From positions 53,500 through 117,499 of the IMG/VR virus record IMGVR_UViG_3300042691_036629: 64,000 bases of DNA. One strand, written 5' to 3'. Made by a program: the position numbers and the translations under genes. Each line of letters starts with the position of its first letter. Position 1 is the first letter of the stretch. A model generated the notes under the pieces. The model saw nothing but the letters and a program-made list of their open reading frames with translations. It was not told the DNA's origin and ran no database searches. The DNA comes from a virus (lineage: Duplodnaviria > Heunggongvirae > Uroviricota > Caudoviricetes). Positions 17,099 through 63,669 of this stretch are shown one piece after another.

Positions 17099-18788
17099 CT
17101 ATTTGTAGTATGTAAAGACCTTTAGAAAGTTGTGGTAACTCTACATCAAAATAATTATCACCTAATTGTAAATCTAATGATTTTTTATAAAATTGTTTAC
17201 CGGTTAAATCATATATCAATAAGTCTTCAACCTTACTAAAAGATGAATGTAAAGAAACATTTATTTCATTTGTAATTGGATTTGGATAAACCGTTAAGTT
17301 CTCAATATTTAATTGAATTAATATAGACTCCCAATCTGTTCTTTTATAATCACCATTATAATCAGTTTGTTTTAATCGATAGTAAGTTATTCCAGTTTCA
17401 ATATTTCGATCAATTGCTTGATAGTTTATTCTTTGAGTTGAATTACCAGCACCTGGTAGAGTTGTAACTATATCATAATCTAAACCATCTTTTGACTTTT
17501 CAATTGTGAAATAATCATTATTGTGTTCTGATGCTGTTGACCATCTTAATTTAACAACACCATCTTCAAATTTAACTTTAAAGTAAATCAACTCAATTGG
17601 TAAAGCAATACCATTTGATTCATAACATCCAACATCTGGATTACCAATACGACTATAATGTCTCAAATCATCAGTTGGTGCTCCGGTTGTTGTTCCCCAA
17701 TCTATACAAGGTGATGTACCAGAAAGTGTATAATCATCACTAGCACTATTTGTGAATAGTGGATTTGATATTAACGGTGATGTATTTGATGTAGCTGATT
17801 TTATCTCAGCTGAATTTCCATAACAACAATTTGTCATGTTAACGGTAGCGGCATTATTATAAACATCATTGAAAGTATTACCTAAATTATTATAAATAAT
17901 TGTATTTATTAAATTTATTTTAGCTGATGATAAAGCCAAAACACCTCCAGTTCCAACAGAAGCATTACCATTAGCAGTTATAGTACAGTTCATAATATTT
18001 AATGTACTATATGTATTCATAGCAACAATAACAGCCTCTCCTGATGATGTATTATTTTCATAAAATAAACAGTTTTCTAATGTTAGAGTAGAGGTAGATC
18101 CAACACCAAAGAATATAGCACCTCCGTAATTAGTAGCGGTATTTGAATAAAAAATTGAATGTTTTATTGATGATGATGATGTTGGTGATAATTCTATTGA
18201 AATAGCACCACCATAATATTCAGCATTACAATTTTTGAAAGTACAATAATCGATGGTTATTCCCTCAGCAGAATAAATAACACCACCTCGGTGATGTAAA
18301 GAGGCAGTTCTTGTATCACAATTATCAAACTGACAATAAGTTGCTTTAAATCCTGTACATCCAGCAATTATTTTAATTGCTCCACCACCTCCTGGATCAC
18401 CTCCATCAGAATTTTTATGATCCTTTATAATTAATTTAGTGATTGTGATATTATCATTATTTGTGTTATTTAACAATAACCATCTTGCGGTACTACCTGC
18501 ATCAAAAATAGATGTAGGTACACCAGATGATAAAGCCGCACCAGAAATTACAAAACCTTCATCATCAGTACCAACAGTAATACCTGTCTCAGAATAAGTT
18601 CCTGCTTCAACGAAAATAGTATCATTAGAACCTAAATTATAGGTGCTGAAAACGTTTGCTAATGTTAATTTTGGTGTAATAGATGATGTTCCATTGTTTG
18701 TATTGTTTCCGGTTGAACTAATATAATAATTAGTTGCTAATGAACTAAATGATAATAATAGTGTTAGTAAAAATAATATTCTTTTCAT
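17064..18788 (-). CDS. secreted right-handed beta-helix repeat protein with T9SS (Por) C-terminal sorting domain
   Basis: Signal peptide MKRILFLLTLLLSFSSLA. Many NxxGGAI/TxxNN beta-helix repeats. C-terminus VYPNPITNEINV...IYDLTGKQ...LSKGLYILQIGDKKLKLEYND. Confidence 0.7.
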   Translation of the reverse strand: MKRILFLLTLLLSFSSLATNYYISSTGNNTNNGTSSITPKLTLANVFSTYNLGSNDTIFVEAGTYSETGITVGTDDEGFVISGAALSSGVPTSIFDAGSTARWLLLNNTNNDNITITKLIIKDHKNSDGGDPGGGGAIKIIAGCTGFKATYCQFDNCDTRTASLHHRGGVIYSAEGITIDYCTFKNCNAEYYGGAISIELSPTSSSSIKHSIFYSNTATNYGGAIFFGVGSTSTLTLENCLFYENNTSSGEAVIVAMNTYSTLNIMNCTITANGNASVGTGGVLALSSAKINLINTIIYNNLGNTFNDVYNNAATVNMTNCCYGNSAEIKSATSNTSPLISNPLFTNSASDDYTLSGTSPCIDWGTTTGAPTDDLRHYSRIGNPDVGCYESNGIALPIELIYFKVKFEDGVVKLRWSTASEHNNDYFTIEKSKDGLDYDIVTTLPGAGNSTQRINYQAIDRNIETGITYYRLKQTDYNGDYKRTDWESILIQLNIENLTVYPNPITNEINVSLHSSFSKVEDLLIYDLTGKQFYKKSLDLQLGDNYFDVELPQLSKGLYILQIGDKKLKLEYND

Positions 18789-23350: not shown

Positions 23351-24931
23351 TTAAACTAATTCAGGTTGTTCTTTAGAAACAAGATCCTCTAACTTCCCAC
23401 GTATGATGGTCAAAGTCGTTTCGTTATAGAACTTACCATCTTTGAAGATAACTTTCAGCTCATTATCTTCCGAGTTAACATCATCCCAAGTACATTTATC
23501 AATTAATGTAAACTCACCATCAACTTTAACTACTTTTAGTAATCCAGTTGCTGATTTTTTAGTACCATCATCAGTGATAGGGTCTTTAAAGATGTTGATA
23601 CCTTCAACATCACCATCAACTTCAATTTCGATGTAGGTTGCTTTTTGAGCCATACCATGTGTATCGCGTGTTACCATCTGAAGTGAATAGGATCCCACAC
23701 CGAGAACGATGTTTGTTGTTGCAAATCCTTTAGCTGATAATCTTTCATAAATACTCTCAGCTCTCTTATAGTTAATAGAGTCACCATAGATAGCACCAAT
23801 GTGTGAGTCTAATTTTTTATATCCGGTTGATGTTTCAGTACCACCAAAGATATCCCATAATAACTCGATAACACCTTTATATTGAGGTTGTTTGTATCTT
23901 TCATTATAAGAAGACATATCTGGAGTTATGCTACCACAAATAATATCTACTGGATCACCAGAGTCAGGACGGATAACAAGTTTGCCATCTCTTGCTAAAA
24001 TTTCATCTTTTAATATTTGACAGTACTCCGTAATAACTCTCCATAAATCCCAAGTATCAGATACTAATGACAATATTCCAGTTGGAAAAGTTCTTAATAA
24101 ATACCTAAATGTCTCAACTTCAAAGTTACCAACCTTATCCCAAGAACCATCTTTAGTCTTAATGAAAAATCCAGTCAATGAACACATAATAGCATGTTCA
24201 GATGCGATAACAGAGTTGATACAAACATCTTTTTCATCATAATACATTCTAGCAGCTGGTATAACAGGTAGTGTATCTGAACCTCTCGAACAAGTAGCAA
24301 ATCCTAAACCACTATTAACAATAGCTGATTTACCACCCATACCTCTCATTGAGAAATCATGATTTTGATAGTCAACAAACCACAAACTCTCCGGATCTGT
24401 TTTTGTGATCCACTTTGTTGATAACTCTCTTAATGCGAATGATAGCGTCGCTGAAGTTGGTGCTTGCCAAGATTCAGCAGAATTAATAGTTTCTAAGTAA
24501 TTAACTATCCAGTCAAAAACTTGACCATTTAAAGGTTTAGTATTAACGATAGTCGATAATGGTATTTTATACGGAATTCTCTCACCTTCAGTGATTGCTC
24601 TAAACTCAATCGGAAGATATCCCAATTTATGTAGTTCTTTGAAGTGAGTAACATCAAAAGGATCACTCAGCATTAACATATCTGTTAAATCCTTCCCAAA
24701 TTGATCGATTTCTTCAATTGGTCTTTGAAAAAAGTTAACATCCCAATCTTGTTTCATTTTTCTCACCATCATTTGTTGACCAAACGAAACAATTTTACCA
24801 TTATTTGGACAATTGCTATATTTACCACTCCTTGGTGTAAAATTTGATTGCATCAAAACACTACCCACTGGTAGCATTGGTTTGTGTCCTGTTTTATACA
24901 CATCGGTATAATAAATTTCTAAAAAGTTCAT
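23351..24931 (-). CDS. nicotinamide phosphoribosyltransferase (Nampt/NadV-like; possibly Namat-type)
   Basis: 526 aa. Conserved LVIRPDSGDP active-site block of the Nampt family. Confidence 0.75.
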   Translation of the reverse strand: MNFLEIYYTDVYKTGHKPMLPVGSVLMQSNFTPRSGKYSNCPNNGKIVSFGQQMMVRKMKQDWDVNFFQRPIEEIDQFGKDLTDMLMLSDPFDVTHFKELHKLGYLPIEFRAITEGERIPYKIPLSTIVNTKPLNGQVFDWIVNYLETINSAESWQAPTSATLSFALRELSTKWITKTDPESLWFVDYQNHDFSMRGMGGKSAIVNSGLGFATCSRGSDTLPVIPAARMYYDEKDVCINSVIASEHAIMCSLTGFFIKTKDGSWDKVGNFEVETFRYLLRTFPTGILSLVSDTWDLWRVITEYCQILKDEILARDGKLVIRPDSGDPVDIICGSITPDMSSYNERYKQPQYKGVIELLWDIFGGTETSTGYKKLDSHIGAIYGDSINYKRAESIYERLSAKGFATTNIVLGVGSYSLQMVTRDTHGMAQKATYIEIEVDGDVEGINIFKDPITDDGTKKSATGLLKVVKVDGEFTLIDKCTWDDVNSEDNELKVIFKDGKFYNETTLTIIRGKLEDLVSKEQPELV

Positions 24932-24966
24932 AGTTTTTATTTTTTATAAAGATAATAATTATTCTA

Positions 24967-25950
24967 TTATTCCAAAACATTTTTGTTGAAAATTTCAGTA
25001 CTCCATTTTTTATAAACTCTACTATCTATATTATCATTTAATATTTTACTCTCCATGATATATGATTCATATAAAGACATTTCCTTTTCAAATAAAATCT
25101 CAACATCTTTTATAAAACCTTTAGATTTACTCTTCAATGACTTTATTCTACTTTCAACCGAAACTGTTGTTATTCCTATTTTATAATAATCACCATTATT
25201 TATTCTCAAATAATATAATTTAGATTTTTTATCCTTTAATTCTGGTTTATCTTCAAATAATTTCTCAGTGTAACCACCAACTAAAATATTATTAAAAACC
25301 ATATTCTTAATTTTACACTCAAAACAATATTGACCGCTTTGGTGTTTTTGAACACTCTTAACAAATAGCCCATGATCCGGACAAATTATATCTATTTTCG
25401 ACCTCTTGTTAATATAAGTATCTCTATTATATTCAGGATAAATATATTTATCATTATAAATATTTGATAATTTTTCTATAACATCATCATAGGTTTGTGT
25501 TTTATTGAGTACTCTATTATCATTAGCACATAATTTACACCCATAGGTGTTATTACTTAATAAATGTATATTCGGTTTTGTATAAAAATCACCATGTTCT
25601 GAACAAGTTATTTTTATATAATCACCAACAAACCCATTGTAGTTTGATAAATCGTATTTGAATTTATCACCAAACTTCTCATAACATCTACCCAAGAACT
25701 CATCTTTTGAAATGATATTTGGACCCTTTACATAATCTCTTTTTATTTTCTTTTTTTCAATTTCCCAACATAATTTACATCCATATTTTGAACGTAAATG
25801 CTTATCAGGTGTTTGAAAAAAATCTTTATGTACTGGGCATATGATTATAGATTTAGTTTTAGCATTCACATAATTAAACTTACTATAATCAAATTTATTA
25901 CCAAATTTAACTATCGATTTTTTTATAAATTCTTCTAACATAAGTATCAC
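24967..25950 (-). CDS. Zn-finger repeat protein with C-terminal GIY-YIG-like/T5orf172-like domain (putative homing endonuclease)
   Basis: Three CPxHGxF...GCKLC-type units, then YYLRINNGDYYKIGITT. Confidence 0.45.
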   Translation of the reverse strand: MILMLEEFIKKSIVKFGNKFDYSKFNYVNAKTKSIIICPVHKDFFQTPDKHLRSKYGCKLCWEIEKKKIKRDYVKGPNIISKDEFLGRCYEKFGDKFKYDLSNYNGFVGDYIKITCSEHGDFYTKPNIHLLSNNTYGCKLCANDNRVLNKTQTYDDVIEKLSNIYNDKYIYPEYNRDTYINKRSKIDIICPDHGLFVKSVQKHQSGQYCFECKIKNMVFNNILVGGYTEKLFEDKPELKDKKSKLYYLRINNGDYYKIGITTVSVESRIKSLKSKSKGFIKDVEILFEKEMSLYESYIMESKILNDNIDSRVYKKWSTEIFNKNVLE

Positions 25951-25986
25951 TTCTTTTATACTTATATATATAAGAACCTATTACCT

Positions 25987-26844
25987 CTAAAATAATTTAG
26001 ATTTCCAGTCTTTATTTTCTTCAATAAGAGATATTTTTTGTAGATAATCAACTACTAATTCATAATCATTAACATCATTATCACCAGTGTAGTTCCATTC
26101 TACTTCATTCAACCAAGTAGAAGCTTGATCTTTTTCTAAGTTATATCTCCAAGAAATTTCATTTGAATAGAAATCATGTAATGATGGGTTTTTAATCTCA
26201 TTTGCGACACCACCAACGACTTTCATAACTTCTCTTAACAAATCTTTGTGTTGTTCATAGATCTCGTTTCTAACAGCAACTACGAAACAGGGCCAAGGTG
26301 TTACAACTTCACCGATACATTTACATTTCTCTGCTTTAACAAATGGATAAGTTGTAAACTTTTCCCATAAGAAAACATCAGACTGCCCATTCTCTAAAGC
26401 CCATAAACCACCATAAACATCACCAACAACTTCAAACTTTAAATCATCGGTATTCCAACCTCTTTGAAATGAGTTTACATAAGCCATTAAGTGTGAACCA
26501 GAACCTTCTCTTGAGATAGCAAATGTTTTACCTTTGATATCATCAGAAGTTTTCATTTCTGAATTAAAAGGTACGTGAATACCCCATCGTAATGGACTTT
26601 TAACATAAACTGTTAATATTTTGGCATCCAAACCATCTAAAATTGCTTTTGTAATTCCTTCAGTAAGAAGAACTGCGATGTCAATTGAACCTGCTTGTAA
26701 ACCTTTAATCATTTGACCAGTACCACCAGTCATATCAGACCAGTGTAGATTTACATCTAAATCATTTAATCTTCCTTCTTCAATGGCTAAACGCCAAGGT
26801 AAGTTGAAGTGTTCGGGAACACCTCCTATTTTAAAGTTTTTCAT
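25987..26844 (-). CDS. hypothetical protein (periplasmic-binding-fold/NMT1-like?)
   Basis: 285-aa ORF sitting between the Nampt-like and Prs-like genes. Assignment is weak. Confidence 0.35.
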   Translation of the reverse strand: MKNFKIGGVPEHFNLPWRLAIEEGRLNDLDVNLHWSDMTGGTGQMIKGLQAGSIDIAVLLTEGITKAILDGLDAKILTVYVKSPLRWGIHVPFNSEMKTSDDIKGKTFAISREGSGSHLMAYVNSFQRGWNTDDLKFEVVGDVYGGLWALENGQSDVFLWEKFTTYPFVKAEKCKCIGEVVTPWPCFVVAVRNEIYEQHKDLLREVMKVVGGVANEIKNPSLHDFYSNEISWRYNLEKDQASTWLNEVEWNYTGDNDVNDYELVVDYLQKISLIEENKDWKSKLF

Positions 26845-26849
26845 ATCTT

Positions 26850-27623
26850 TTATATAATACTTTTATAATCAATCAATTCTAAATTATTTAGAACATAATA
26901 GTCATACTTACTATTAGTAGTAAATATCTTATCATAACACTCAAGACTTGTATTTGGATCTTGAATAGTCATATGACTAACTGCTAAGTATATCTTACCA
27001 ACATTTCTCTCCTTTAACATATTCAATAGACCTATAAATGTACCACCCTTTACACATAAATCATCCAATACTAATATATCTCTACCACCAAAATCAGAAC
27101 AATCAATAACTTGCTTCAAATCATGTGTTTTTAAATCTCTAGACTTACTAGCACAATAAACATCACCATTAAATCCTATTTTATCAACTAATTTATTTAT
27201 CCATTTAAATGAACCAGCATCTGTTGAAAATAATATTGGATTAGAATCAATTCTACTTAAAACACTTGATATAAATTTAGAATTATCAACAACTCTAATA
27301 TTATTCAATCCCATTTGAGTGGAATCAGAATGTGGATGGAAAACATAAACTTTACTAAAATTACATGAGTTGATAAAGTCACAAACTATCTTTAGTTCAA
27401 ATGATTGATTATCAAAAAATCTACGGTCATGTTGCTGTTGAAACATACATGGTATAAATAACTCAACATCTTTAATTCCATTAAAATCACAAACCTCTTT
27501 GATGGATTTTATGAAAAAAAGGTCCTCATATGAATTTATTCTTTCGGTTATTATAGGTTCACTAAAATCCTCTACTTCAACATAAAAGCTACCATCCGGA
27601 TATTTCTTTTTTAAATATTTCAT
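26850..27623 (-). CDS. ribose-phosphate pyrophosphokinase (Prs)-like protein (possibly Adps-type)
   Basis: PCMFQQQHDRRF aligns to PYfgYaRQDRK. ILVLDDLCVKGGTF resembles the PRPP-binding loop. At 257 aa it is shorter than canonical Prs. Confidence 0.6.
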   Translation of the reverse strand: MKYLKKKYPDGSFYVEVEDFSEPIITERINSYEDLFFIKSIKEVCDFNGIKDVELFIPCMFQQQHDRRFFDNQSFELKIVCDFINSCNFSKVYVFHPHSDSTQMGLNNIRVVDNSKFISSVLSRIDSNPILFSTDAGSFKWINKLVDKIGFNGDVYCASKSRDLKTHDLKQVIDCSDFGGRDILVLDDLCVKGGTFIGLLNMLKERNVGKIYLAVSHMTIQDPNTSLECYDKIFTTNSKYDYYVLNNLELIDYKSII

Positions 27624-28408
27624 AATAATTCTTCTTTAAATAAAACTGACTCTTTTAATCTTCTCAATAATTTATACTTTATTCCTAAAACTCTACTAAT
27701 CCTAAGTAAAGGAACTTTATTATACAATAAATCCTTTATCTCATCAACCCTATCTAAAATAGATCCCATCTCACATTTATCACCATGCCATCTATTATAA
27801 TTAGCAGAGTCACACTCAACATTACAAATATAACAAATTTTTTTATTTTCTTCTATACCCTTTTTTATTTTTTCAATCTCATCATTGGATAATTCTCTAT
27901 TCTTATTCCAAGGTATTTTTCCCTTACCTGCTTCTGATATTTTTTTTCTATGTTCATCTGAAAAAGTTCGACCAGAATGTGATTTATTTCCAAATCTAGC
28001 TTTTATTAAATTTTTCTTCCACTCACCATCAATTACTTTACCAATGTGTGATTTAGATGCCTTCTTCCTAGACTCTTCACTCCAAACTCTTTTTATTTGA
28101 CCATCACCACCATCTGTCATATTTACTAAATTACCTAAACCTAGATCCTTTCTACCATAAAATAAAATCAGATTTTTTTCTAGACTTTTCACATATTCAT
28201 AATCATCGGTCTCACATACTATCTCAATTGAATAATCATCATTCAATAAAGAAACTGTATTTAACCAATGTTTATTTCTCCTTTTTTTATTAAAAGCCCT
28301 ACTATACTTATTATAAGTTATATCAGATTTATTTTTTGTCCCTATACCAATATAGAAAATGATATTACTATCATTTCTTATATGTTTATATAAATAATGT
28401 TTTCCCAT
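27620..28408 (-). CDS. GIY-YIG homing endonuclease
   Basis: HYLYKHIRNDSNIIFYIGIG...R...E, followed by basic repeat tracts. Confidence 0.55.
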   Translation of the reverse strand: MGKHYLYKHIRNDSNIIFYIGIGTKNKSDITYNKYSRAFNKKRRNKHWLNTVSLLNDDYSIEIVCETDDYEYVKSLEKNLILFYGRKDLGLGNLVNMTDGGDGQIKRVWSEESRKKASKSHIGKVIDGEWKKNLIKARFGNKSHSGRTFSDEHRKKISEAGKGKIPWNKNRELSNDEIEKIKKGIEENKKICYICNVECDSANYNRWHGDKCEMGSILDRVDEIKDLLYNKVPLLRISRVLGIKYKLLRRLKESVLFKEELL

Positions 28409-39105: not shown

Positions 39106-39140
39106 TAAAAAAGTCCTGATTTTCATCAGGACTTTTATTT
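39106..39140. terminator. bidirectional rho-independent terminator
   Basis: AAAAAAGTCCTGAT-TTTC-ATCAGGACTTTTATTT between convergent genes. Confidence 0.7.
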
Positions 39141-40495: not shown

Positions 40496-40927
40496 ATGAA
40501 ATATCTAAAACTATTTGAAAAATTCACTATTGAAGAACTCATTGAAAATAATAAAAAGGCTAATGAAATACTAGAAGATATTAAAAGTATATCATATATC
40601 ATAGAAGATGAGGGATTTGATATTCAATATACCTTTCAATTCAGTAAAGATTGGAAACAATCATTTATAAATGTTGATGATTATAACACATCAAGAGATG
40701 CTGGTAGAGCTAGAAAAAAGATAAATGGAATTTCTTTAGTTATTCACAAAAATTCGATTGAGACATCTAAAAAAACTAGACTTGATTTTTCACCTTCTGA
40801 TAATGAAATACTTAATAATTTTATTGTTCTTCTGAAAGAACACTTAGATTATATAGATGGAAAATCTATTCTAAGTGGGCGCGGTAATTTTAATAATTCA
40901 ATGAGTATTTTAATTCAATTTGGTTAA
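40496..40927 (+). CDS. hypothetical protein, MKYLKLFEKF N-terminal family
   Basis: 143 aa, with TAATATATAC just 5' of the ATG. Confidence 0.5.
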   Translation: MKYLKLFEKFTIEELIENNKKANEILEDIKSISYIIEDEGFDIQYTFQFSKDWKQSFINVDDYNTSRDAGRARKKINGISLVIHKNSIETSKKTRLDFSPSDNEILNNFIVLLKEHLDYIDGKSILSGRGNFNNSMSILIQFG

Positions 40928-41640
40928 GAGTAGAATTTATCAGAAAACACACTATAATTATTACCAACAGAATTATGATCGTTTATAACAGCAAAAACAA
41001 CCTCTTTATATAAAGATGAATAACCTTCTTCAACTAAAACCTTTCTAAATAATTCTGACATCACATGGGGATCATTCCCAAAAACACCACAACCAAAAGC
41101 TCCCAAAACCAAGTTCTCAACACCATGTTTAGATGGGATAGTAAGCATCAATCTTATCTTTTGGAGTGTAATCTCTTCATAAGTCTCTTTATCATAACTA
41201 CGACTGTTTAAGTTTATAGCAGCTATCGTAATAATATCACACTCAACCGGTTCCATATCATTATAATCCTTATCTTTAAAGAATGTAGCATCTGATGTAT
41301 AAAGACAAGTACCATCTTCTAATGGATAAAAATCTTCTACAATTGAATTGATTAAGTTAGAACATCTAAATAAACATTCTTCTTGAGCTCTGGCTCCATT
41401 ACGAACTCCACCACCCGGTTTCTTATACGAAGCCATATTCAAGCCACAAGTTTTACCAGACTTAGATAACTCTACAAGAGCAGATACCGTATCTAAATTA
41501 ACGACCTTAACATTACCTTTATAAACTGATAAATAAGGTCCAACTATCTCATTATTTGAATGTTGTGTTGTAACACCATCATTAAACTTCACGGACTTGA
41601 TTTGAGTATCGTGAAATATCTCTACTAAATTATTTCTCAT
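40924..41640 (-). CDS. macro-domain-like / microbial PARG-like (DUF2263-type) protein
   Basis: KKPGGGVRNGARAQEECLFRCSNL matches the GGG-x6-8-QEE signature of PARG/macro-like ADP-ribose-processing enzymes. Confidence 0.5.
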   Translation of the reverse strand: MRNNLVEIFHDTQIKSVKFNDGVTTQHSNNEIVGPYLSVYKGNVKVVNLDTVSALVELSKSGKTCGLNMASYKKPGGGVRNGARAQEECLFRCSNLINSIVEDFYPLEDGTCLYTSDATFFKDKDYNDMEPVECDIITIAAINLNSRSYDKETYEEITLQKIRLMLTIPSKHGVENLVLGAFGCGVFGNDPHVMSELFRKVLVEEGYSSLYKEVVFAVINDHNSVGNNYSVFSDKFYS

Positions 41641-41642
41641 AT

Positions 41643-41942
41643 TTATAAATTATCTGGTTTAGGTGGTTGTTCACCTTCTTTTAAAATCCTATCTTTTGGT
41701 GGTGCAGGAACTGGATCACGCCCTTCTTTTATTATCTGACTTCTTGGTGGTTTTGGTTTACTAATCTTACCATTAACATACTTAACAGCCTCAGGTCCTC
41801 TTGTTACAATAACCTCTTTGATACTATCGACAACAGTATCCTCAATTTTACTTTTGAAAGAAACAATCTTCCAAATTAAAAATAATACAGCAATCGCAAT
41901 AATTCCTAATACGACTACTAATGATATTAAAATTCCATTCAT
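41643..41942 (-). CDS. membrane-anchored Pro-rich protein
   Basis: N-terminal TM segment and a C-terminal PKPPR...PVPAPPK...PPKP tract. Confidence 0.4.
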   Translation of the reverse strand: MNGILISLVVVLGIIAIAVLFLIWKIVSFKSKIEDTVVDSIKEVIVTRGPEAVKYVNGKISKPKPPRSQIIKEGRDPVPAPPKDRILKEGEQPPKPDNL

Positions 41943-41947
41943 ATTTT

Positions 41948-42208
41948 TTATATTACACCGATCTTTTTAAGTTTAAAATCTCTTCTATCAGAAACCGTTC
42001 TAAATAATTTCTTTGGATAAGAACATCTGAGCATTTGAGAACCCTTTGGTCCAGAAACATAATCATCAAAGTAAATTAAATATTGACCTTCGAGCCGAGG
42101 TGGGACCACTAAATCAGATACCTCTCTAAATTTATACCACTTACCAACCTTCAAACTCTTGTAATAACCACAACCATTTGATACACACTGAACCATCCCA
42201 TCTTTCAT
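41948..42208 (-). CDS. hypothetical small protein, tail RRDFKLKKIGVI
   Basis: 86-aa ORF. Confidence 0.45.
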   Translation of the reverse strand: MKDGMVQCVSNGCGYYKSLKVGKWYKFREVSDLVVPPRLEGQYLIYFDDYVSGPKGSQMLRCSYPKKLFRTVSDRRDFKLKKIGVI

Positions 42209-42247
42209 CCTAATATCTTTTTTAATTTACAAATTCCGTATAATAAA

Positions 42248-42574
42248 TTAAATACCTAACTCCTCAAAATTCATTTCATCTAAAACCTCAATAGGAACCG
42301 GACTTCCATCCATTATCTTAGACAAAACTCCATAAACCCAACCACTGAAACCAGCATAACTCTCCTTGTGACATTTATAACAACTACCACTAGCTCCTAT
42401 AAAGTAATAGTAATCACTATCAGATTCCACCTTAACAATACCAGAGTTCATCTTCCAACGATCACTGCCGGCATAACCACCACGCCAACCACCGAAAACT
42501 CGATAGTAAACACCATCAACACCGTCAATTTTTAATATAACCCAGTTCTCTGGGCTTTCAGTTACCACTCTCAT
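42248..42574 (-). CDS. hypothetical protein, tail EMNFEELGI
   Basis: 108-aa ORF. Confidence 0.4.
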   Translation of the reverse strand: MRVVTESPENWVILKIDGVDGVYYRVFGGWRGGYAGSDRWKMNSGIVKVESDSDYYYFIGASGSCYKCHKESYAGFSGWVYGVLSKIMDGSPVPIEVLDEMNFEELGI

Positions 42575-42870
42575 AACTTTGATATTTCTTCTTTTATACG
42601 TGGGAATAACAATTCATGATTTAAAACTCCCTTAACTACTTCTCTCTTATATTCAATACTTGCTCGATATCCGGGTTGACTCCAAAATCTTCTTAGACCA
42701 TAATTAACTTCTCTGAAAACATCAATTATATCATCATACTCATCAATTAATACACGTAAAGGTATATCTTTAAACCTATCTTCTCTTTCACGAGCATAAG
42801 ACGTAACATAATCAAAAATATAATTCACCTTTTCTTCTAAAGACTTTTCTCTTAACTCTTCTAATGTCAT
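42571..42870 (-). CDS. hypothetical protein, tandem paralog A
   Basis: 99 aa. Starts MTLEELREKSLEEKVNYIFDYV and ends GVLNHELLFPRIKEEISKL. Confidence 0.5.
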   Translation of the reverse strand: MTLEELREKSLEEKVNYIFDYVTSYAREREDRFKDIPLRVLIDEYDDIIDVFREVNYGLRRFWSQPGYRASIEYKREVVKGVLNHELLFPRIKEEISKL

Positions 42871-43166
42871 AACTTTGATATTTCTTCTTTTATACGTGGG
42901 AATATCAATTCATGATTTAAAACTCCCTTAACTAATTCATTTTTAAATACATTAGCACCTAATCGATACCAATCGGTATGATATTCAGCTGGTCTTAAAC
43001 TCCTATTAACTTCTCTAATAGCATCAAATATATCCTTATATTCAACAATTACTCCACGGAAAGAAATATTTCTAAACTTTGGTCCCAATCCATGAGAGAT
43101 AACGTAGTCACATATATAATCTACCTTTTCTTCTAAAGGACGATCTCTTAATTCTTCTAATGTCAT
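42867..43166 (-). CDS. hypothetical protein, tandem paralog B
   Basis: 99 aa. Starts MTLEELRDRPLEEKVDYICDYV with the same C-terminus as paralog A. About 65 nt of near-identical DNA at both gene starts. Confidence 0.5.
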   Translation of the reverse strand: MTLEELRDRPLEEKVDYICDYVISHGLGPKFRNISFRGVIVEYKDIFDAIREVNRSLRPAEYHTDWYRLGANVFKNELVKGVLNHELIFPRIKEEISKL

Positions 43167-43555
43167 ATTCCTATAATATTATTTAATTTTATTTCTCTTC
43201 TGATTGCTGGTAAATGTTTGTAAAACTCATCACCAAGATCGAGATCCCAAATAAACTTAGGTTTAATAGTTAAATTTACCTTACTAAGACCAGAACTCTC
43301 AAAACTTGTAATCTCTCCATGTATAACCCTATTTACAGTATTTATTCTAATTCTAAAACATCTCAATACAATTAAATCAAACCTCTCATTTTGTTTAAAA
43401 ATATTCTCAATATCATAAAACTCGTTAGTGCTAAAACCAGTATGTCTATTTACACCACTATAAGTTATGGAACCATCATCCAATAAAGTAAAGTAATCAA
43501 AATCAAATGAAAATGATTCAGCCTTATCCGATAAACAAAATGTGATCTTATTCAT
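43163..43555 (-). CDS. hypothetical protein, tail IRREIKLNNIIGI
   Basis: 130-aa ORF. Confidence 0.4.
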   Translation of the reverse strand: MNKITFCLSDKAESFSFDFDYFTLLDDGSITYSGVNRHTGFSTNEFYDIENIFKQNERFDLIVLRCFRIRINTVNRVIHGEITSFESSGLSKVNLTIKPKFIWDLDLGDEFYKHLPAIRREIKLNNIIGI

Positions 43556-43556
43556 A

Positions 43557-44018
43557 TTAAATCGACTTTAGAAAATCATCTAATGACTTATTACCCTTCT
43601 TACCATTACACTCACCACAACATGGAGTTATATTACTAACATCAAACCTACCTCCTCCTCTTGATACAGGAACGATATGATCAATCGTAGCCTTTATACT
43701 TTCTTTGACACGCATCCCATCATACTCAATAACCAAATCTCCCTTACCACAATAAGTACACTTAATATCACCATCACGAGATAAAACACTCTCTAAATAA
43801 CTTCTACTAAACTCAATACGTTTATTAATCAAATCCATCTTCTCTATATAATCCACATCCATCTCCATTAAATATTTTCTTAATAAGATAGAAGATGCTA
43901 ATGATTTACAATTACTAACATCAGATAATATTAAATCCACCTCTTTTGTAGACCCCGAACTCGACTTCTTAACAAACTTTATCATATTATGTGTGTGATT
44001 ATATACAAATATAATCAT
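43557..44018 (-). CDS. HNH endonuclease
   Basis: CTYCGK...IDHIVPVSRGGG...NITPCCGECNGKKGN is the HNH/zinc-finger signature. Confidence 0.7.
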   Translation of the reverse strand: MIIFVYNHTHNMIKFVKKSSSGSTKEVDLILSDVSNCKSLASSILLRKYLMEMDVDYIEKMDLINKRIEFSRSYLESVLSRDGDIKCTYCGKGDLVIEYDGMRVKESIKATIDHIVPVSRGGGRFDVSNITPCCGECNGKKGNKSLDDFLKSI

Positions 44019-44042
44019 TTAATAATTCTTTTCAAAGAAAAG

Positions 44043-44768
44043 TTAAATTGGTAGATTAACTTTATTTAAAAGTTGATTAGAAACGTGTGTATATATCTCT
44101 GTTGTTTTGGTGGATGAGTGACCTGCTATTTTCTGTATTATTCTTAGATCTGTTCCATTTTCTAAGAGGTTGGTAAAGGCTGAGTGTCTGAGGGTATGTA
44201 TAGATGAATTTTCATCAATATATTTTTTATAGATATTTTGACAGGATTGTATTGAATATTTGTTTGTGGATTGACCATTAAAAAGATATTCTTTTGGTGT
44301 ATATTTTTCTGAATATATTTTTATTAGATTTTGTACGTTTTCTGAAAGTGGTACAATTCTATCTTTTTTACCTTTAGCATTTTTAATATGAATAATCATT
44401 CTTTTGGAGTCAATATCTTCTATTTTAAGATTTATTATTTCGGAAACTCTTAAACCAACTGAATAGGTTAAAGTAAGTATAGTTTTATGCTTAAGGTTTT
44501 CTATTTTAGAAAGTTTAGATTTGATATAATCGCCTACATCATTTGTCCATTTTCCATTAAAAAACGCAGGTGTTTCAAATATAACATTAAACCCCTTATC
44601 AACAATGAAAAAATTCATAGTATCAGAAAATACACCCCAAAAAAATCCATTAGAATCTTTAGTGTTATCATCTATTATATCTCCAATAGTTTTACTCTCA
44701 CTAACATCAGATATATTCAAGTTTTCTTTAAACTCTTCGAAACTTTGTATGTTATTTTTACCTTTCAT
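44043..44768 (-). CDS. tyrosine recombinase catalytic domain with non-canonical N-terminus (truncated/chimeric integrase)
   Basis: Catalytic motifs GLRVSE (box I Arg), HTLRHSAF (HxxR) and GHSSTKTTEIYTHV (Tyr). The N-terminal about 70 aa are unrelated to a core-binding domain and are shared with the neighbouring gene. Confidence 0.65.
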   Translation of the reverse strand: MKGKNNIQSFEEFKENLNISDVSESKTIGDIIDDNTKDSNGFFWGVFSDTMNFFIVDKGFNVIFETPAFFNGKWTNDVGDYIKSKLSKIENLKHKTILTLTYSVGLRVSEIINLKIEDIDSKRMIIHIKNAKGKKDRIVPLSENVQNLIKIYSEKYTPKEYLFNGQSTNKYSIQSCQNIYKKYIDENSSIHTLRHSAFTNLLENGTDLRIIQKIAGHSSTKTTEIYTHVSNQLLNKVNLPI

Positions 44769-44830
44769 CTTTGTAAATTATTTTAGTTTATATATTAAAA
44801 AGAAAACCTAAATATATCTGTGACCGTTAG
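44694..44830. repeat. direct repeat unit copy 1 (5' coding end plus upstream region)
   Basis: ACTCTCACTAACATCAGATATATTCAAGTTTTCTT...TATATATTAAAAAGAAAACCTAAATATATCTG...CGTTAG, repeated at 45001-45140. Confidence 0.7.
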
Positions 44831-45075
44831 TGAGAATAGACTGGAATACATTTATCCATATCTATATCATCTAAAACTTGAATGTCACCTCTTTCTGCTT
44901 CTAAATCTTGTAGTGTAAAATATCCACCTTGTAGTTCTATATTGAGAATTCTGTATATTTTACCATTATATTCACATCTATCTGGAATCATATTCCATCT
45001 ACTCTCACTAACATCAGATATATTCAAGTTTTCTTCTGACTCGTTAAATCTTTTAAGGTGTGTTAATTTATTCAT
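44827..45075 (-). CDS. hypothetical protein sharing N-terminus with the integrase gene
   Basis: MNKLTHLKRFNESEENLNISDVSESR. Compare the integrase N-terminus MKGKNNIQSFEEFKENLNISDVSESK. Confidence 0.45.
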   Translation of the reverse strand: MNKLTHLKRFNESEENLNISDVSESRWNMIPDRCEYNGKIYRILNIELQGGYFTLQDLEAERGDIQVLDDIDMDKCIPVYSH

Positions 45076-56483: not shown

Positions 56484-57056
56484 ATGAAATACTTAAAATT
56501 ATTTGAAAACTTCGATGGAGAAGATCCTAAATGGATTGTAACATCTGCTTTAGATCCAATAGAGGTTGATGAGGTTACCTTTGATGAGAAGTACGGAGAT
56601 ACATCTATGTTTCGTTTATTTGAATTTAGTGAAGAACCTAGTGAAGATAAAATAAACCATTTAAAATCATGGATAGAAGAGGAAGGATATTACTCTCATA
56701 AAACAAGTAAAGGAATTATAGTTACTGATAAACCAATAGAGAATGTATGTATTGATTGGTTAAATAAAAACTTTTCTGATATGGAAAAAGTTGAGAGTAA
56801 GGATCACCCTGGATGTGTTCTTTATAGGTATAATCCAGGTGACAATATAATTTTTTATGATAAAAGTAGAGATAGACGAATTTACGTAAGCACTTCAATC
56901 TGGTCGTTTTTTGAGAGATATGGTTTTTTATTGAATATATACAAGAAGGAGGCGTGGGAATGGAGTAAAGAAACCATCATGAATAATTGGTTAAATATTG
57001 ATGGTAAATTAGTAGTATTATTAAATAAAGGTTCACTTCTTCAAGTATGTGTATAA
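56484..57056 (+). CDS. hypothetical protein, MKYLKLFENF N-terminal family
   Basis: 190 aa with AATATATAG just 5' of the ATG. Confidence 0.5.
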   Translation: MKYLKLFENFDGEDPKWIVTSALDPIEVDEVTFDEKYGDTSMFRLFEFSEEPSEDKINHLKSWIEEEGYYSHKTSKGIIVTDKPIENVCIDWLNKNFSDMEKVESKDHPGCVLYRYNPGDNIIFYDKSRDRRIYVSTSIWSFFERYGFLLNIYKKEAWEWSKETIMNNWLNIDGKLVVLLNKGSLLQVCV

Positions 57057-60501: not shown

Positions 60502-60981
60502 TCATAACTCTAAGTTATTTAGTATTTCTATTGCCTTATCCGTACAGATTCTTGTCAAACCATAACCAATATCAACACAATCTTCGTGATCTTTATTACC
60601 AGATGTTTTTACGAAATAAGGTAGTTGGTGTTCTTCCATATCTGTATCATCGTCTAAGATTAAATAACTCGTAATATCTTTGTTCTCTTTAAGATAAGCG
60701 TCTATTTCTTTTCCTCTACATAAAGTTGTGCCATAATGTCTCATAAAGTTTGGAGTTATACCAATAACCTCACCTGGTAAACCTCTTTTAATCCACATTT
60801 CTTTCATTATTTCTAACCCACTTAAACGCCAAGTACTACTTATAACAATCTTAGCACCAGTTTCATCAATCAATCGTTTTAGATTGTCTACTAAGTGTGG
60901 ATGAAATAGTGATCCATATTCATCTCTACCTTCGTAACAAAGGTTAAGAACGCCATCTATGTCTAAAAATATTACTTTCAT
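60502..60981 (-). CDS. HAD-superfamily phosphatase
   Basis: Motif I FLDIDGVLN and motif II ISSTWR. Confidence 0.55.
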   Translation of the reverse strand: MKVIFLDIDGVLNLCYEGRDEYGSLFHPHLVDNLKRLIDETGAKIVISSTWRLSGLEIMKEMWIKRGLPGEVIGITPNFMRHYGTTLCRGKEIDAYLKENKDITSYLILDDDTDMEEHQLPYFVKTSGNKDHEDCVDIGYGLTRICTDKAIEILNNLEL

Positions 60982-62833: not shown

Positions 62834-63130
62834 ATGAAGAATATTAAAACATTTGAAAATTATGGACGTGATAGAGGAACATATCAAGAAAATGAAAGAC
62901 GTTCAGATAGAACTAAAGAGTTAGACAATTTTTTAAGAAAGAAAAATGTAATCAATGATGATAAAACATCCGAAATTATCGAAAGATTTAAAGCTGAGTT
63001 TGGTAATAGAGATTTTTCAACTCAAGAGTTTGCTGAGTTCTATCATGTATTAAGAACTGAAGGTTTTGATGGTATTCAGATTTTTAATGCTTTAGGTAAT
63101 ATGATACCAGAAAATAATGATGAAGAATAA
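62834..63130 (+). CDS. hypothetical protein, MKNIKTFENY N-terminal family
   Basis: 98-aa ORF with TAATATATAAAG upstream. Confidence 0.45.
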   Translation: MKNIKTFENYGRDRGTYQENERRSDRTKELDNFLRKKNVINDDKTSEIIERFKAEFGNRDFSTQEFAEFYHVLRTEGFDGIQIFNALGNMIPENNDEE

Positions 63131-63669
63131 TGAGATATTTACAAACATATGAGTCACTATCAAATGATAGTTTAGTTTCTTTAGTAAAAGAACTTAATAA
63201 TATAAAACCAGATGCTATTATCTATTCATCACCAGGAAGGTTTACATTTAACCACCCAAGCGTTAAATTGATTAAATTGAATTTTGAAGAAGGTGATTTA
63301 GTTAGTACATCAAAGTCTAGTTTTGATAATTCAAATGATAAAGGTGCTCATTTATTGAGTATGGGAAATTCAATTGAATACCTTTATAAAAATGATCCAG
63401 ATTATATTAAAACTAAGAATATAAAAAAATTAAACTTACCAATCTATGTAGTTTTAGATAAGGTTGATAAAAAGAAGTTATTTGAAATTGCTAATAAAAT
63501 AACTGATAGTGGTTATTCGGTTACTTATTATATGTTTACATATAGTGAACAAGATTGGTTAAAACCTGAAAACTTCTCTGTAAATTCACTTAGATATTCA
63601 AAGAAAATTTCAGAAAGTGAAATAGTGGGACTTAAACATGATTTTAAGTTTGTTATAGAGTTTAAATAA
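63130..63669 (+). CDS. hypothetical protein, MRYLQTYESL N-terminal family
   Basis: 179 aa. Its start overlaps the upstream stop (ATGA). Confidence 0.45.
   Translation: MRYLQTYESLSNDSLVSLVKELNNIKPDAIIYSSPGRFTFNHPSVKLIKLNFEEGDLVSTSKSSFDNSNDKGAHLLSMGNSIEYLYKNDPDYIKTKNIKKLNLPIYVVLDKVDKKKLFEIANKITDSGYSVTYYMFTYSEQDWLKPENFSVNSLRYSKKISESEIVGLKHDFKFVIEFK

Follow-up and report, generated by a model that had tools for sequence, protein, structure and literature searches.

The window, as we call the whole 64-kb stretch of DNA that was analysed, encodes a bacterial-type PARG: sequence profiles and a predicted structure place the protein in the PARG class of macrodomains. Because of the profile scores, the confident model and the invariance of the catalytic loop, the diphosphate loop and the INDHNS motif, the phage protein is almost certainly, by prediction, an active enzyme. 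The gene is that of a stand-alone eraser, without an adjacent cognate writer. It is a new member of an established enzyme family already seen in large viruses, which makes the result a correct annotation and not the description of a new kind of system. We tentatively favour, at somewhat less than an even chance, a role in counter-defence or repair, in which the protein would erase ribose-2'-O- or phosphate-linked ADP-ribose on RNA or DNA, or PAR, against host ADP-ribosyltransferases.

Family, fold and active site of the phage PARG

In the ORF list of the window, the gene (Table 1) is a complete minus-strand ORF that starts with ATG and codes for a single domain of 238 residues. It fills exactly the positions at which the sequence-only reading had located a PARG/macro-like protein, the strand being absent from that reading. 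The ATG start is supported, since the N-terminus (M..NLVEVF.DT) lines up with 26 homologues in the alignment. A promoter scan was uninformative (48 sites versus 46.7 expected).

Table 1. Positions of the PARG gene, its motifs and other genes of the window.
Feature	Position	Strand	Basis or remark
Bacterial-type PARG gene (TIGR02452 / PF10021 PARG_cat_microb)	40924..41640	-	ORF, profiles, PDB matches, AF2 model, Foldseek
LNMAS motif, aa 67-71	41428..41442	-	Equivalent to LNFAS of TcPARG/DrPARG; invariant in the clade
Catalytic loop KKPGGGVRNGARAQEECLFRCSNL, aa 73-96	41353..41424	-	GGG 76-78, QEE 86-88
Predicted diphosphate-binding loop GAFGCGVFGNDP, aa 180-191	41068..41103	-	Alignment to DrPARG
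C-terminal INDHNS..GNNY segment ('ribose-cap' region), aa 219-229	40954..40986	-	Alignments to TcPARG/DrPARG
Convergent neighbour, 143 aa, without family match	40496..40927	+	Functionally separate from the enzyme
Six tightly packed small genes, 86-130 aa, without family match	41643..43555	-	Upstream of PARG
Prs/Adps-like gene	26850..27623	-	Pfam Pribosyltran and Pribosyl_synth (both weak); phrog_619, 148 bits
Nampt/Namat-like gene	23351..24931	-	PF04095, 99.9 bits; phrog_448, 523 bits
HAD_SAK_2 gene	60502-60981		Pfam scan of the window; 19 kb from PARG

The assignment to the microbial PARG-like macrodomains (DUF2263/TIGR02452), proposed earlier from the sequence, was borne out by profile, structure-prediction and conservation evidence. 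The profile check, in which an unrelated fold could have emerged, gave scores above the curated cut-offs of both TIGR02452 (130.5 bits versus 50; E=8.1e-38; model positions 52-264 of 266) and PF10021 (75 bits versus 23.5; E=1.1e-20). The only other Pfam match listed, canonical PARG (PF05028), was under its cut-off. The bacterial PARGs 3SIG and 5ZDA were the best sequence matches in the PDB, with E values of ~1e-16 to 1e-17 when the single sequence was the query and of 1e-22 to 1e-26 with the profile. Searching the PHROGs with the protein produced no match, so that phage-specific annotation resources contribute nothing to the assignment.

The AF2 model of the 238-residue protein had a pLDDT of 87.1 and a pTM of 0.87. 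Structure prediction against PARG and DarG macro domains had been proposed as a check. In the Foldseek search of the PDB, ranks 1 to 13 were occupied by the solved PARGs of T. curvata (TcPARG) and D. radiodurans (DrPARG), with TMq values of 0.72-0.83 and a structure identity of ~25%, followed by canonical PARGs (0.54-0.63) and then by generic macrodomains. The best 50 PDB matches included no DarG or TARG1 structure.

The class assignment bears on the lead idea of the sequence-only reading, according to which the protein would act as a DarG-like antidote, clearing phage ssDNA of the ADP-ribose that DarT attaches to thymidine or guanosine bases. DarG and the phage PARG are both macrodomains and, according to three reports, DarTG defends against phages and orphan antitoxin-like erasers are carried by phages (PMC11825919, PMC11481870, PMC13309987). 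However, DarG is of the TARG1/ALC1-like class, in which the catalytic residue is a Lys (K80 of TaDarG; PMC9967889), whereas the phage protein is of the PARG class, its predicted catalytic residues are the QEE pair, and its sole significant Pfam match is the microbial-PARG family PF10021. PARG was reported not to remove DarT-made ADP-ribose from DNA (PMC9967889), and guanine-linked ADP-ribose was reversed only by NADARs, not by macrodomain hydrolases including a bacterial PARG (PMC11833690). The anti-DarTG factors of phages described so far are, according to the same three reports, DarG-like or NADAR proteins (PMC11825919, PMC11481870, PMC13309987). Neither a DarT gene beside PARG nor a C-terminal DarT-binding domain was found, the neighbours lacking family matches and the window lacking ART domains. 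Since the chemistry of DarT reversal belongs to TARG1/DarG-type and NADAR enzymes, this role is very unlikely; it was rejected on grounds of class and specificity.

The Gly-rich loop and the QEE signature reported by the sequence-only reading are both present in a protein whose family match is far above chance. Seven residues separate G76-G78 from Q86-E87-E88, and the resulting GGG-X7-QEE lies inside the published PARG signature GGG-X6-8-QEE (PMC8120803, PMC5966428). In pairwise and profile alignments, E88 is aligned with the catalytic Glu115 of TcPARG and Glu112 of DrPARG, and E87 with Glu114 and Glu111, respectively; the substitution E112A abolishes the activity of DrPARG (PMC6445106). S71 and G77 are aligned with DrPARG Ser95 and Gly101, which adjoin the distal ribose, and G183-C184-G185-V186-F187 with Gly224-Cys225-Gly226-Val227-Phe228, a loop that holds the pyrophosphate through its main-chain N atoms (PMC6445106). 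The GGG-X7-QEE, LNMAS, GxxGCGVF and INDHNS motifs are all invariant among 27 relatives sharing 55-68% identity, which indicates purifying selection on catalysis. The invariant residues are P75-G78, G82, A83 and A85-L96 in the catalytic loop, G180, G183-F187, N189 and P191 in the diphosphate loop, and I219-S224 and N228 in the C-terminal segment.

This pattern makes it extremely improbable that the protein is a non-catalytic binder of ADP-ribose or PAR, acting as a sponge or a reader. Binders of this type do exist, since some macrodomains only bind their ligand, phage sponges act on nucleotide signals, and some homologues of the phage glycosidase RyDEP sequester but do not cleave (PMC13232231). 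In the phage clade, however, both Glu residues of QEE and the entire catalytic loop are conserved without exception, and these Glu residues are aligned with residues whose mutation kills the activity of DrPARG and TcPARG (PMC6445106). The non-catalytic binder was rejected because QEE is invariant across the 27 relatives.

The ribose cap is a feature of TcPARG and not of the whole family: Arg268, held by Asp261, enforces exo-only cleavage. In the alignments, N220 of the phage PARG stands at the position of TcPARG Asp261 and DrPARG Asp260, and N227 or N228 stands at that of TcPARG Arg268 and DrPARG Thr267, the correspondence beyond H222 being an ungapped extrapolation. For this extension, the DrPARG sequence near Thr267 was deduced from primer sequences (PMC6445106). 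With Asn at both cap positions, the Asp-Arg ion pair of TcPARG would be absent from the phage PARG, and the enzyme may be more like the endo-capable DrPARG (Thr267) than like TcPARG.

Genomic neighbourhood and viral distribution

PARG had been described as lying directly 3' of the 143-residue neighbour. The two genes do adjoin, but their relation is convergent since the neighbour is on the plus strand; they are arranged tail to tail with stop codons overlapping by 4 nt. This arrangement recurs in four independent metagenome contigs. The neighbour begins with a MKYLKLFE.F-type N-terminal leader that is common to at least five other ORFs of the window. On the other side, the nearest small gene ends 3 nt before the ATG of PARG and is on the same strand, indicating that PARG is likely to be co-transcribed with the upstream small genes. 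The order of these genes is kept in loci L001-L004 only.

Potential partners of PARG were searched for by ORF calling and all-vs-all BLAST clustering within 10 kb on either side of the gene in 44 loci, representing 30 distinct PARG sequences. No conserved operon partner was found across the 30 distinct loci, and no partner family was common to more than 6 loci. The most frequent partner family was DHFR, due to synteny among related phages. When ~112 ORFs of the window were compared with Pfam (82 via one pseudo-alignment), no ART, PARP, SIR2, TIR, NADAR or further Macro domain was detected, and the neighbouring genes scanned at other PARG loci likewise showed no ART or PARP.

The absence of ART and PARP domains from these regions and the lack of a recurrent partner family speak against a toggle for the phage's own ADP-ribosylation, in which a phage ART or PARP encoded elsewhere in the genome would modify proteins of the host or the phage and PARG would trim or remove chains to time or limit the modification. 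The two enzymes would then resemble the writer/eraser pairs of H. aurantiacus, C. difficile CD160 and D. radiodurans. Bacterial PARP and PARG pairs are functional (PMC5966428, PMC6445106), ARTs are encoded by jumbo phages of all groups and PARPs by a few (PMC7824862), and PARP genes are present in Aeromonas phage Aeh1 and Cellulophaga phage phi4:1 (PMC4245714). A writer could also lie elsewhere, the scan having covered 64 kb of a much larger genome. We consider the toggle rather unlikely.

An RNA ligase gene was found within about 5 kb of PARG in 3 of the 30 loci. It overlaps the PARG start in L011 and lies upstream by about 4-7 kb in L007 and L015; in a fourth locus, a shorter protein from this sequence cluster is encoded near PARG. 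The association is weak (3-4 of 30 loci, with partly shared ancestry). It recalls the ligase-PARG-Pnk operon of D. radiodurans (DRB0100-0099-0098; PMC11833690). In L005, the RNA-repair domains PolyA_pol and 2H-SAK are encoded 6-8 kb upstream of PARG. Together with the HAD_SAK_2 gene of the window, the D. radiodurans operon and the high activity of PARG on phosphate-linked ADP-ribose (PMC11833690), these loci are consistent with a role in the healing of RNA or DNA ends, in which PARG would free 5' or 3' phosphate ends of ADP-ribose (Tpt1/KptA-type products) so that ligases could reseal tRNAs or mRNAs after cleavage by anticodon nucleases of the host. Such a function would be housekeeping repair and not an answer to a dedicated ART defence. 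However, most loci do not show the ligase link, PARG in the window has no ligase, Pnk or Tpt1 gene close by, the HAD_SAK_2 gene is 19 kb away, and the window yielded no Tpt1/KptA domain. End healing is therefore, in our estimate, a rather improbable function.

Two further loci combine PARG with other erasers. In an IMG/VR viral contig (L032), a 3,299-residue polyprotein contains PARG_cat_microb, NADAR and UCH peptidase domains, a set of 'eraser' domains in which the NADAR match (34.8 bits) is slightly under its cut-off (35.1). In a Treponema MAG, a gene for an ARH/DraG-type ADP-ribosylglycohydrolase overlaps a PARG-like gene.

The phage PARG belongs to a clade of ~240-residue proteins with more than 100 cluster representatives, which are 55-68% identical to it. 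Those relatives that lie on long contigs come from environmental metagenomes, on IMG/VR sequences of 25-676 kb, most of them >100 kb and of the size of huge phages. The hosts of these phages are probably Bacteroidota. The clade is mainly restricted to very large phage genomes. The exact same protein is present on contigs of up to 171,766 bp, indicating that the genome extends well beyond the window; the longest of these contigs retrieved was JGI 3300031758 Ga0315907_10000141 (105 kb). Viral homologues were present in LR756502, a 642-kb uncultured phage (52% identity), and in LR756511, the Lak phages and phage G (33-37%). In BFVD, 'Gp114 [uncultured marine phage]' shared 50% identity with the phage PARG and gave a TM of 0.89. 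Proteins of giant viruses annotated as 'Microbial-type PARG catalytic domain' gave TM values of 0.80-0.85; giant eukaryotic viruses with such proteins include Pandoravirus, Orpheovirus, Tupanvirus, Marseillevirus and Bodo saltans virus. The occurrence of bacterial-type PARGs with the conserved signature in phage G and pandoraviruses has been known since 2014 (PMC4245714).

Megablast of positions 36-46 kb of the window against 50,697 phage records detected no match, hence no close sequenced relative. The window carries homing endonucleases, one intein, Nampt and Prs genes with PHROG matches, and one tRNA; no virion genes were identified within its 64 kb. Together with the relatives on large IMG/VR contigs and in LR756502, the homing endonucleases, the intein, the phage-type Nampt and Prs genes and the tRNA indirectly support the phage origin assumed by the sequence-only reading.

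Candidate substrates and role

Profile matches confirmed that the window contains a Prs-like/Nampt-like module, into which PARG had been suggested to feed ADP-ribose. The best tblastn match of the Nampt-like gene was in Tenacibaculum phage PTm1 (45.7%). Two genes, encoding a T5orf172 endonuclease and a PBP-like protein, separate the Prs-like and Nampt-like genes, and the pair lies within the 10 genes used to define NARP1 (bioRxiv 2024.02.11.579819). From its sequence, the product of the Prs-like gene could possibly catalyse the opening step of NARP1-type NAD+ reconstitution and be a potential consumer of free ADP-ribose. The proposed supply by PARG is chemically reasonable and has had a precedent since 2026 in RyDEP (phage DyoEdafos gp78), a RyR-domain glycosidase that produces linear ADP-ribose feeding NARP1 (PMC13232231), but it finds no echo in gene linkage. 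The Prs/Nampt pair forms a separate gene block 13-17 kb from PARG, no Nampt-like gene was found within 10 kb of PARG at any of 29 other distinct loci, and PARG-like genes were ~100-fold rarer than Nampt-like genes among the 50,697 phage records (20 versus 2045 records).

The same evidence bears on a role in signal degradation and NAD+ recycling, in which PARG would cleave the 1''-2' or 1''-3' bond of 2'cADPR, 3'cADPR or di-ADPR-like TIR signals, silence Thoeris and feed Prs/Nampt. The bond in 2'cADPR is of the same ribose-ribose O-glycosidic type as the PAR bond cleaved by PARG, RyDEP performs exactly such a cleavage and feeds NARP1 (PMC13232231), phage Macro domains have been predicted by Aravind and co-workers to degrade ADP-ribose-derived signals (PMC7824862), and the window does encode a NARP1-like pair. 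The distance of 13-17 kb, as opposed to the location of RyDEP inside the NARP1 operon, the 29 loci and the relative rarity of PARG all weigh against this role. In PARG-ADPR complexes, moreover, ADP-ribose is bound in an extended form, and a ligand that is cyclic and compact might not be accommodated. In the literature searched, nothing linked PARG with gcADPR, cADPR or Thoeris, and no PARG activity on cADPR isomers was reported. We regard this role as unlikely. By analogy, the phage PARG could be the macrodomain-fold counterpart of RyDEP, cleaving the 1''-2' bond in TIR signals (2'cADPR, linear di-ADPR or ADPr-ATP-like molecules) and passing ADP-ribose to the phage Adps/Namat-like enzymes, a parallel that we judge quite unlikely to hold. 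If true, it would add a second, independently evolved class of glycosidases to phage anti-signalling and a small-molecule substrate to the PARG-class enzymes.

The general idea of a phage-encoded eraser of ADP-ribosylation, already put forward by the sequence-only reading, is supported by the profile, structure-prediction and conservation evidence. The favoured erasure of ribose- or phosphate-linked ADP-ribose or of PAR, in the in vivo form that we infer, would proceed as follows. Host ADP-ribosyltransferase toxins or defence systems would place adducts on phage or host RNA, DNA ends or proteins. The macrodomain would bind one ADP-ribose unit, and E88, the second Glu of QEE, would serve to hydrolyse the C1'' bond of the distal ribose, so that free ADP-ribose is released. 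As in characterised members, the possible substrates would be the alpha(1''->2') ribose-ribose O-glycosidic bond of PAR, ADP-ribose-2'-O-ribose on RNA, and ADP-ribose on 5' or 3' phosphate ends of RNA or DNA. The bond in the ADP-ribose-2'-O-ribose adduct on RNA is chemically identical to the PAR linkage. Removal of the adducts would allow translation and replication to go on, and the freed ADP-ribose would incidentally be reusable by the NARP1-like Prs/Nampt enzymes of the phage.

Bacterial-type PARGs have a wide distribution, and what they do physiologically has been called unknown (PMC11833690). A 2025 study found them to be unique in erasing 2'-O-ribose ADP-ribosylation from RNA and able to serve as immunity enzymes: SCO0909 and DRB0099 were the sole hydrolases tested that reversed the 2'-OH RNA ADP-ribosylation made by RhsP2, each protected E. 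coli from RhsP2, and SCO0909 was the most active on 5'-phosphate ADP-ribosylated RNA (PMC11833690). As genomic context for an eraser role, we counted the L032 polyprotein, the ARH-PARG pair, the RNA-ligase adjacency, the RNA-repair domains of L005 and the lack of a writer nearby. The immediate neighbours of PARG in the window, which are uncharacterised small genes giving no functional clue, count against it. The known ADP-ribosylating anti-phage systems, DarT1/2 and CmdT, modify bases. We know of no anti-phage defence that makes ribose-2'-O- or phosphate-linked ADP-ribose or PAR, which also counts against the favoured role, and the literature searched contained no paper tying PARG to phage counter-defence.

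The conservation of a writer-less PARG clade in huge phages, paralleled in giant viruses, suggests that such viruses regularly meet PARG-cleavable adducts. The substrate of the phage PARG could reveal a host chemistry new to anti-phage immunity, either ADP-ribosylation of RNA at the 2'-OH or at phosphate ends, or bacterial PAR. Alternatively, it could add a new anti-signalling enzyme.

Comparison with known systems

TcPARG (PDB 3SIG, 3SIH and 3SIJ) and DrPARG (DRB0099; PDB 5ZDA-5ZDG) are, like the phage PARG, single-domain PARG-class macrodomains of about 240-280 residues, and share with it GGG-X7-QEE, LN(F/M)AS and the GxxGCGVF diphosphate loop. The phage protein is shorter at the N-terminus relative to the TIGR02452 model, its first 37 residues being unmatched to the first 51 model positions, and differs from both enzymes by the clade-specific, invariant C-terminal motif INDHNS..N. 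It also differs from them in being encoded by a huge phage, with no PARP, ligase or Pnk gene adjoining.

DarG/TARG1-type antitoxins, the DarG mimics of phages and the NADAR orphan antitoxins are likewise erasers of nucleic-acid ADP-ribosylation, and DarG is in the macrodomain superfamily. In contrast to the phage PARG, DarG and TARG1 belong to the catalytic-Lys class and act on base-linked ADP-ribose in ssDNA, and DarG additionally carries a DarT-binding domain at its C-terminus.

The likeness to RyDEP would be functional: this phage enzyme acts on a ribose-ribose O-glycosidic bond and yields linear ADP-ribose, which is rebuilt into NAD+ by Adps and Namat, and the phage of the window also carries a NARP1-like pair. 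RyDEP has a RyR/R12 fold (PF02026) with a His/Asp active site (PMC13232231), as opposed to the PARG-class macrodomain, and lies inside the NARP1 (Adps-Namat) operon, whereas the phage PARG is remote from the corresponding genes.

The functional model for the phage PARG is provided by SCO0909 of S. coelicolor and DRB0099, enzymes of the same class that act as stand-alone erasers against the foreign writer RhsP2 (PMC11833690). These are cellular enzymes tested on an interbacterial T6SS toxin, whereas the phage PARG is a predicted enzyme carried by a virus. Its closest counterparts, gp114 of Bacillus phage G and the PARGs of Lak megaphages, LR756502, LR756511 and giant viruses, have the same family assignment and fold, and the phage PARG represents a distinct, well-populated clade among them.

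Family assignment and active site

The PARG gene starts with ATG and encodes 238 residues, and the plus-strand reading of the same interval is packed with stop codons. The peptide quoted in the sequence-only reading corresponds to residues 73-96 of this ORF, in which GGG (residues 76-78) and QEE (residues 86-88) form GGG-X7-QEE, a spacing within the range of the published signature, GGG-X6-8-QEE (PMC8120803; PMC5966428). Assignment to the microbial PARG-like family (DUF2263/TIGR02452), initially proposed from the sequence, was borne out by profile, sequence and structure comparisons. The protein scored 130.5 bits against NCBIfam TIGR02452 (cut-off 50, E = 8e-38, nearly the entire model covered) and 75 bits against Pfam PF10021, the Microbial-type PARG catalytic domain (cut-off 23.5); no PHROG family matched it. 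The top PDB sequence matches were the PARGs of Thermomonospora curvata (TcPARG, 3SIG) and Deinococcus radiodurans (DrPARG, 5ZDA-G), with E-values of ~1e-16 to 1e-17 when the single sequence was the query and of 1e-22 to 1e-26 when it was a profile derived from a 27-sequence alignment. The AlphaFold2 model obtained with the same alignment was confident (mean pLDDT 87.1, pTM 0.87). Foldseek placed 13 bacterial PARG entries at the top of the PDB (TM 0.72-0.83), followed by canonical eukaryotic PARGs (0.54-0.63) and then by ordinary macrodomains. Thus, profiles gave the PARG family and no unrelated fold; the JGI annotation of the exact protein is already 'TIGR02452 family'.

Residues E87/E88 align with Glu114/115 of TcPARG and Glu111/112 of DrPARG, S71 and G77 with Ser95 and Gly101 of DrPARG, and G183-F187 with its diphosphate-binding Gly224-Phe228 (roles of the DrPARG residues from PMC6445106). 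None of these positions varies among 27 relatives, for an overall identity of just 55-68%, and the same holds for INDHNS..N, a C-terminal motif particular to the clade. This pattern in the alignment indicates selection for catalysis, not merely for binding, making a non-catalytic binder scarcely credible. The protein is very probably an active bacterial-type PARG (bactPARG). TcPARG is strictly exo-acting owing to its Asp261-Arg268 'ribose cap', and DrPARG, which has Thr at the Arg268 position, is endo-capable (PMC6445106). In the alignment, extrapolated beyond H222, Asn220 and Asn227/228 of the phage protein fall at the two cap positions, which might allow it to accommodate internal units, or larger acceptors like RNA.

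Gene neighborhood, NAD module and probable phage origin

The sequence-only reading had located the PARG gene immediately 3' of the ORF at 40496-40927. The two do adjoin; since they are carried by opposite strands, they are convergent, tail to tail, with a 4-nt overlap at the stop codons. The closest same-strand gene upstream ends 3 nt ahead of the PARG ATG. The PARG gene closes a minus-strand series of small, uncharacterised genes, the GC content of this region (~0.30) is usual for the window, and the surrounding gene order is kept in near-identical contigs only. Shortly upstream, tandem 99-aa paralogues share near-identical N-termini (MTLEELR..) and C-termini (..VKGVLNHEL.FPRIKEEISKL), with no family match. 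A hairpin with a perfect 12-bp stem and a 4-nt loop, flanked by A-runs and T-runs, is located between convergent gene blocks ~1.8 kb downstream from the PARG gene and has a terminator score on either strand. A similar N-terminal leader, M[KR][YHW][LI]K.FE.F (e.g. MKYLKLFEKF, MKYLKLFENF), opens at least six ORFs of the window and might serve in targeting or processing. These ORFs are presumably what was previously termed a propeptide family.

Features in the window and at compared PARG loci (L handles, other PARG-bearing contigs)
Feature	Position	Strand	Remark
PARG gene	40924..41640	-	
M[KR][YHW][LI]K.FE.F-leader ORFs	40496-40927	+	
	56484-57056, 63130-63669, 4197-4706, 6810-8717, 9582-10733		143-635 aa (all six)
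99-aa paralogues	42571-42870, 42867-43166	-	
Hairpin	39109-39136		
Nampt/Namat-like	23351-24931	-	module 23351-28408
T5orf172 endonuclease	24967-25950	-	
PBP2_Ca3427/NMT1-THI5-like binding protein	25987-26844	-	
Prs/Adps-like	26850-27623	-	
NUMOD3 endonuclease	27620-28408	-	
Intein/endonuclease region	12537-15676	+	Intein_splicing and LAGLIDADG_3 domains (13655-14632, 14645-15676)
Integrase-like region	43557-45075	-	82-aa ORF at 44827-45075
Integrase-like region, L001	6104-7598		
Integrase-like gene, L002	1593-2318		
Cell-like auxiliary genes	518-1815, 8961-9539, 11907-12518, 15780-16313, 17064-18788, 60502-60981		listed jointly: formyltransferase, ClpP-like protease, M50 peptidase, NUDIX, IF3, T9SS-domain protein, HAD_SAK_2 phosphatase
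RNA ligase and overlapping PARG-like gene, L011	8875-10717	+	371-kb IMG/VR contig
Giant ORF, L032	3530-13429	+	viral contig
Giant ORF, L033	84-9551	+	
ADP_ribosyl_GH gene and overlapping PARG-like gene, L040	8961-10663	+	Treponema sp. MAG

The NAD+ reconstitution pathway of phages, NARP1, is operationally defined by Prs/Adps and Namat homologues at most 10 genes apart (bioRxiv 2024.02.11.579819). Such a pair is present in the window, the Prs-like and Nampt-like genes being separated by the T5orf172 endonuclease and PBP-like genes. The module is broken up by selfish elements, and its PBP-fold gene could be a third pathway component. The module and the PARG gene are 13-17 kb apart and belong to separate blocks; no Nampt-like gene was found within 10 kb of PARG in any other distinct locus, and 2,045 phage records contain Nampt-like genes versus 20 that contain PARG. 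The earlier suggestion that ADP-ribose feeds the Prs/Nampt-like enzymes holds insofar as released ADP-ribose could be recycled; nothing suggests that recycling is the selected function. Degradation of cADPR- or di-ADPR-type signals by PARG, feeding NARP1, is improbable, and we give slightly less credence still to a macrodomain analogue of RyDEP, the phage RyR-domain glycosidase cleaving cADPR-type signals. A literature search found no paper tying PARG to phage counter-defence or Thoeris signals.

In addition to homing endonucleases (HNH, GIY-YIG/NUMOD, T5orf172), an intein and an integrase-like gene, the AT-rich window (~28% GC) encodes a single tRNA-Leu and Nampt and Prs of phage type with strong PHROG matches. 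Its auxiliary genes are of the sort that huge phages typically have: IF3, ClpP, HU, formyltransferase, NUDIX, GNAT and HAD_SAK_2, an RNA-repair domain. Large ORFs of the window had no Pfam or PHROG match. No virion gene was identified within the window, and we therefore infer from its relatives and gene content that it is phage DNA. A T9SS sorting domain (Por_Secre_tail) and the best match of Nampt, in Tenacibaculum phage PTm1, point to a Bacteroidota host, at which the cell-like auxiliary gene set also hints. The NUDIX hydrolase has a 65-aa N-terminal extension. Three successive ORFs on one strand look like a gene invaded by an intein or homing endonuclease; the invaded host protein had no Pfam match. 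The integrase-like gene (Phage_integrase domain) adjoins an HNH gene and encodes 241 aa in the window and L002, and 266 aa, including a SAM-like N-domain, in the otherwise near-identical contigs L001, L003 and L004. Its N-terminus (..ENLNISDVSES..) is also found in the adjacent 82-aa ORF, and this sharing suggests that the site is a variable cassette or a hotspot of recombination.

Distribution of the phage PARG

At least 18 metagenomic contigs encode the exact protein (longest recorded, 171,766 bp; longest retrieved for analysis, 105 kb). Homologues number more than 1,100, including more than 100 cluster representatives of ~240 aa at 55-68% identity, and the IMG/VR contigs of the clade span 25-676 kb, the majority exceeding 100 kb. 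Among 50,697 deposited phage records, 20 contained PARG: two were of uncultured huge phages (642 and 595 kb), 15 were Lak megaphage records, two were of Bacillus phage G (gp114) and one was a 23-kb fragment. In GTDB (one genome per species), matches to clade-specific patterns were confined to MAG contigs. The best, at 45% identity, was on L034 (JAVTWD010000016.1), a contig of 375 kb that had been assigned to a Bacteroidota MAG and may be a mis-binned huge phage rather than a bacterial chromosome fragment; small same-strand ORFs are dense around its PARG-like gene. In BFVD, many giant viruses of eukaryotes have the same fold (Pandoravirus, Orpheovirus, Tupanvirus, Marseillevirus, Bodo saltans virus). 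Since bactPARG homologues with the conserved signature were listed in phage G and pandoraviruses by Perina et al. in 2014 (PMC4245714), large viruses are already known to carry this family. Its fold and mechanism have likewise been published. The original annotation was correct and the finding itself is unsurprising; the question raised by a huge-phage PARG is testable.

Substrates of the class and putative role

Bacterial PARGs hydrolyse at C1'' of the distal ribose, including the alpha(1''->2') ribose-ribose bond of PAR (PMC8120803; PMC6445106). The RhsP2 adduct on RNA 2'-OH has a linkage identical to this bond; within the hydrolase panel tested, it was reversed by PARGs only, and PARGs shielded cells from the toxin (PMC11833690). 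The class is also active on ADP-ribose at 5'/3' phosphate ends (PMC11833690). DarT thymidine adducts are not acted upon by PARG (PMC9967889), and guanine adducts are left by macrodomain hydrolases and reversed only by NADARs (PMC11833690). Reversal of DarT-type ssDNA modification, the lead idea of the sequence-only reading, is thus very improbable. Based on this class chemistry, we tentatively favor a stand-alone eraser of PARG-cleavable, host-inflicted adducts. The host would place ADP-ribose on RNA, DNA ends or proteins, and the phage PARG, with no writer gene beside it, would remove it by hydrolysis at C1''; Prs/Nampt-like enzymes might recycle the freed ADP-ribose. A toggle for an undetected phage ART or PARP is unlikely, as no ART, PARP, SIR2 or TIR domain was detected among the ~112 ORFs of the window.

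Clustering of ORFs from 44 loci (30 distinct PARG sequences) revealed no conserved PARG partner. DHFR, near PARG in six loci, reflects synteny among related phages. L032 and L033 contain giant ORFs of ~3,150-3,300 aa (IMG/VR contigs of 52-58 kb). The domain scan of giant ORFs, covering L032, identified a 3,299-aa polyprotein combining PARG_cat_microb (residues 2073-2197), NADAR (34.8 bits, slightly short of its cut-off of 35.1) and a UCH peptidase; it is a polyvalent protein of several 'eraser' domains. In L040, the PARG-like gene begins inside an ARH/DraG-type ADP-ribosylglycohydrolase gene, bringing two ADP-ribose hydrolase classes into one apparent operon, with no writer among the neighbors scanned. 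These two loci place the domain among erasers, not beside writers.

An RNA ligase is encoded within ~5 kb of PARG in three loci, L007, L011 and L015. In L007 and L015 it is ~4-7 kb upstream; in L011, where the ligase has an HNH insertion, its gene shares 17 nt with the beginning of the PARG-like gene. A shorter member of the ligase sequence cluster is near PARG in L008, and in L005 genes for PolyA_pol and 2H-SAK are found 6-8 kb upstream. The contexts of L005, L007, L011 and L015 favor housekeeping RNA-end repair, which we nonetheless regard as unlikely, to the same degree as the toggle. These contexts recall the ligase-PARG-HD/Pnk operon of D. radiodurans (PMC11833690), and the ligase-PARG overlap of L011 is reminiscent of its DRB0100-DRB0099 arrangement.
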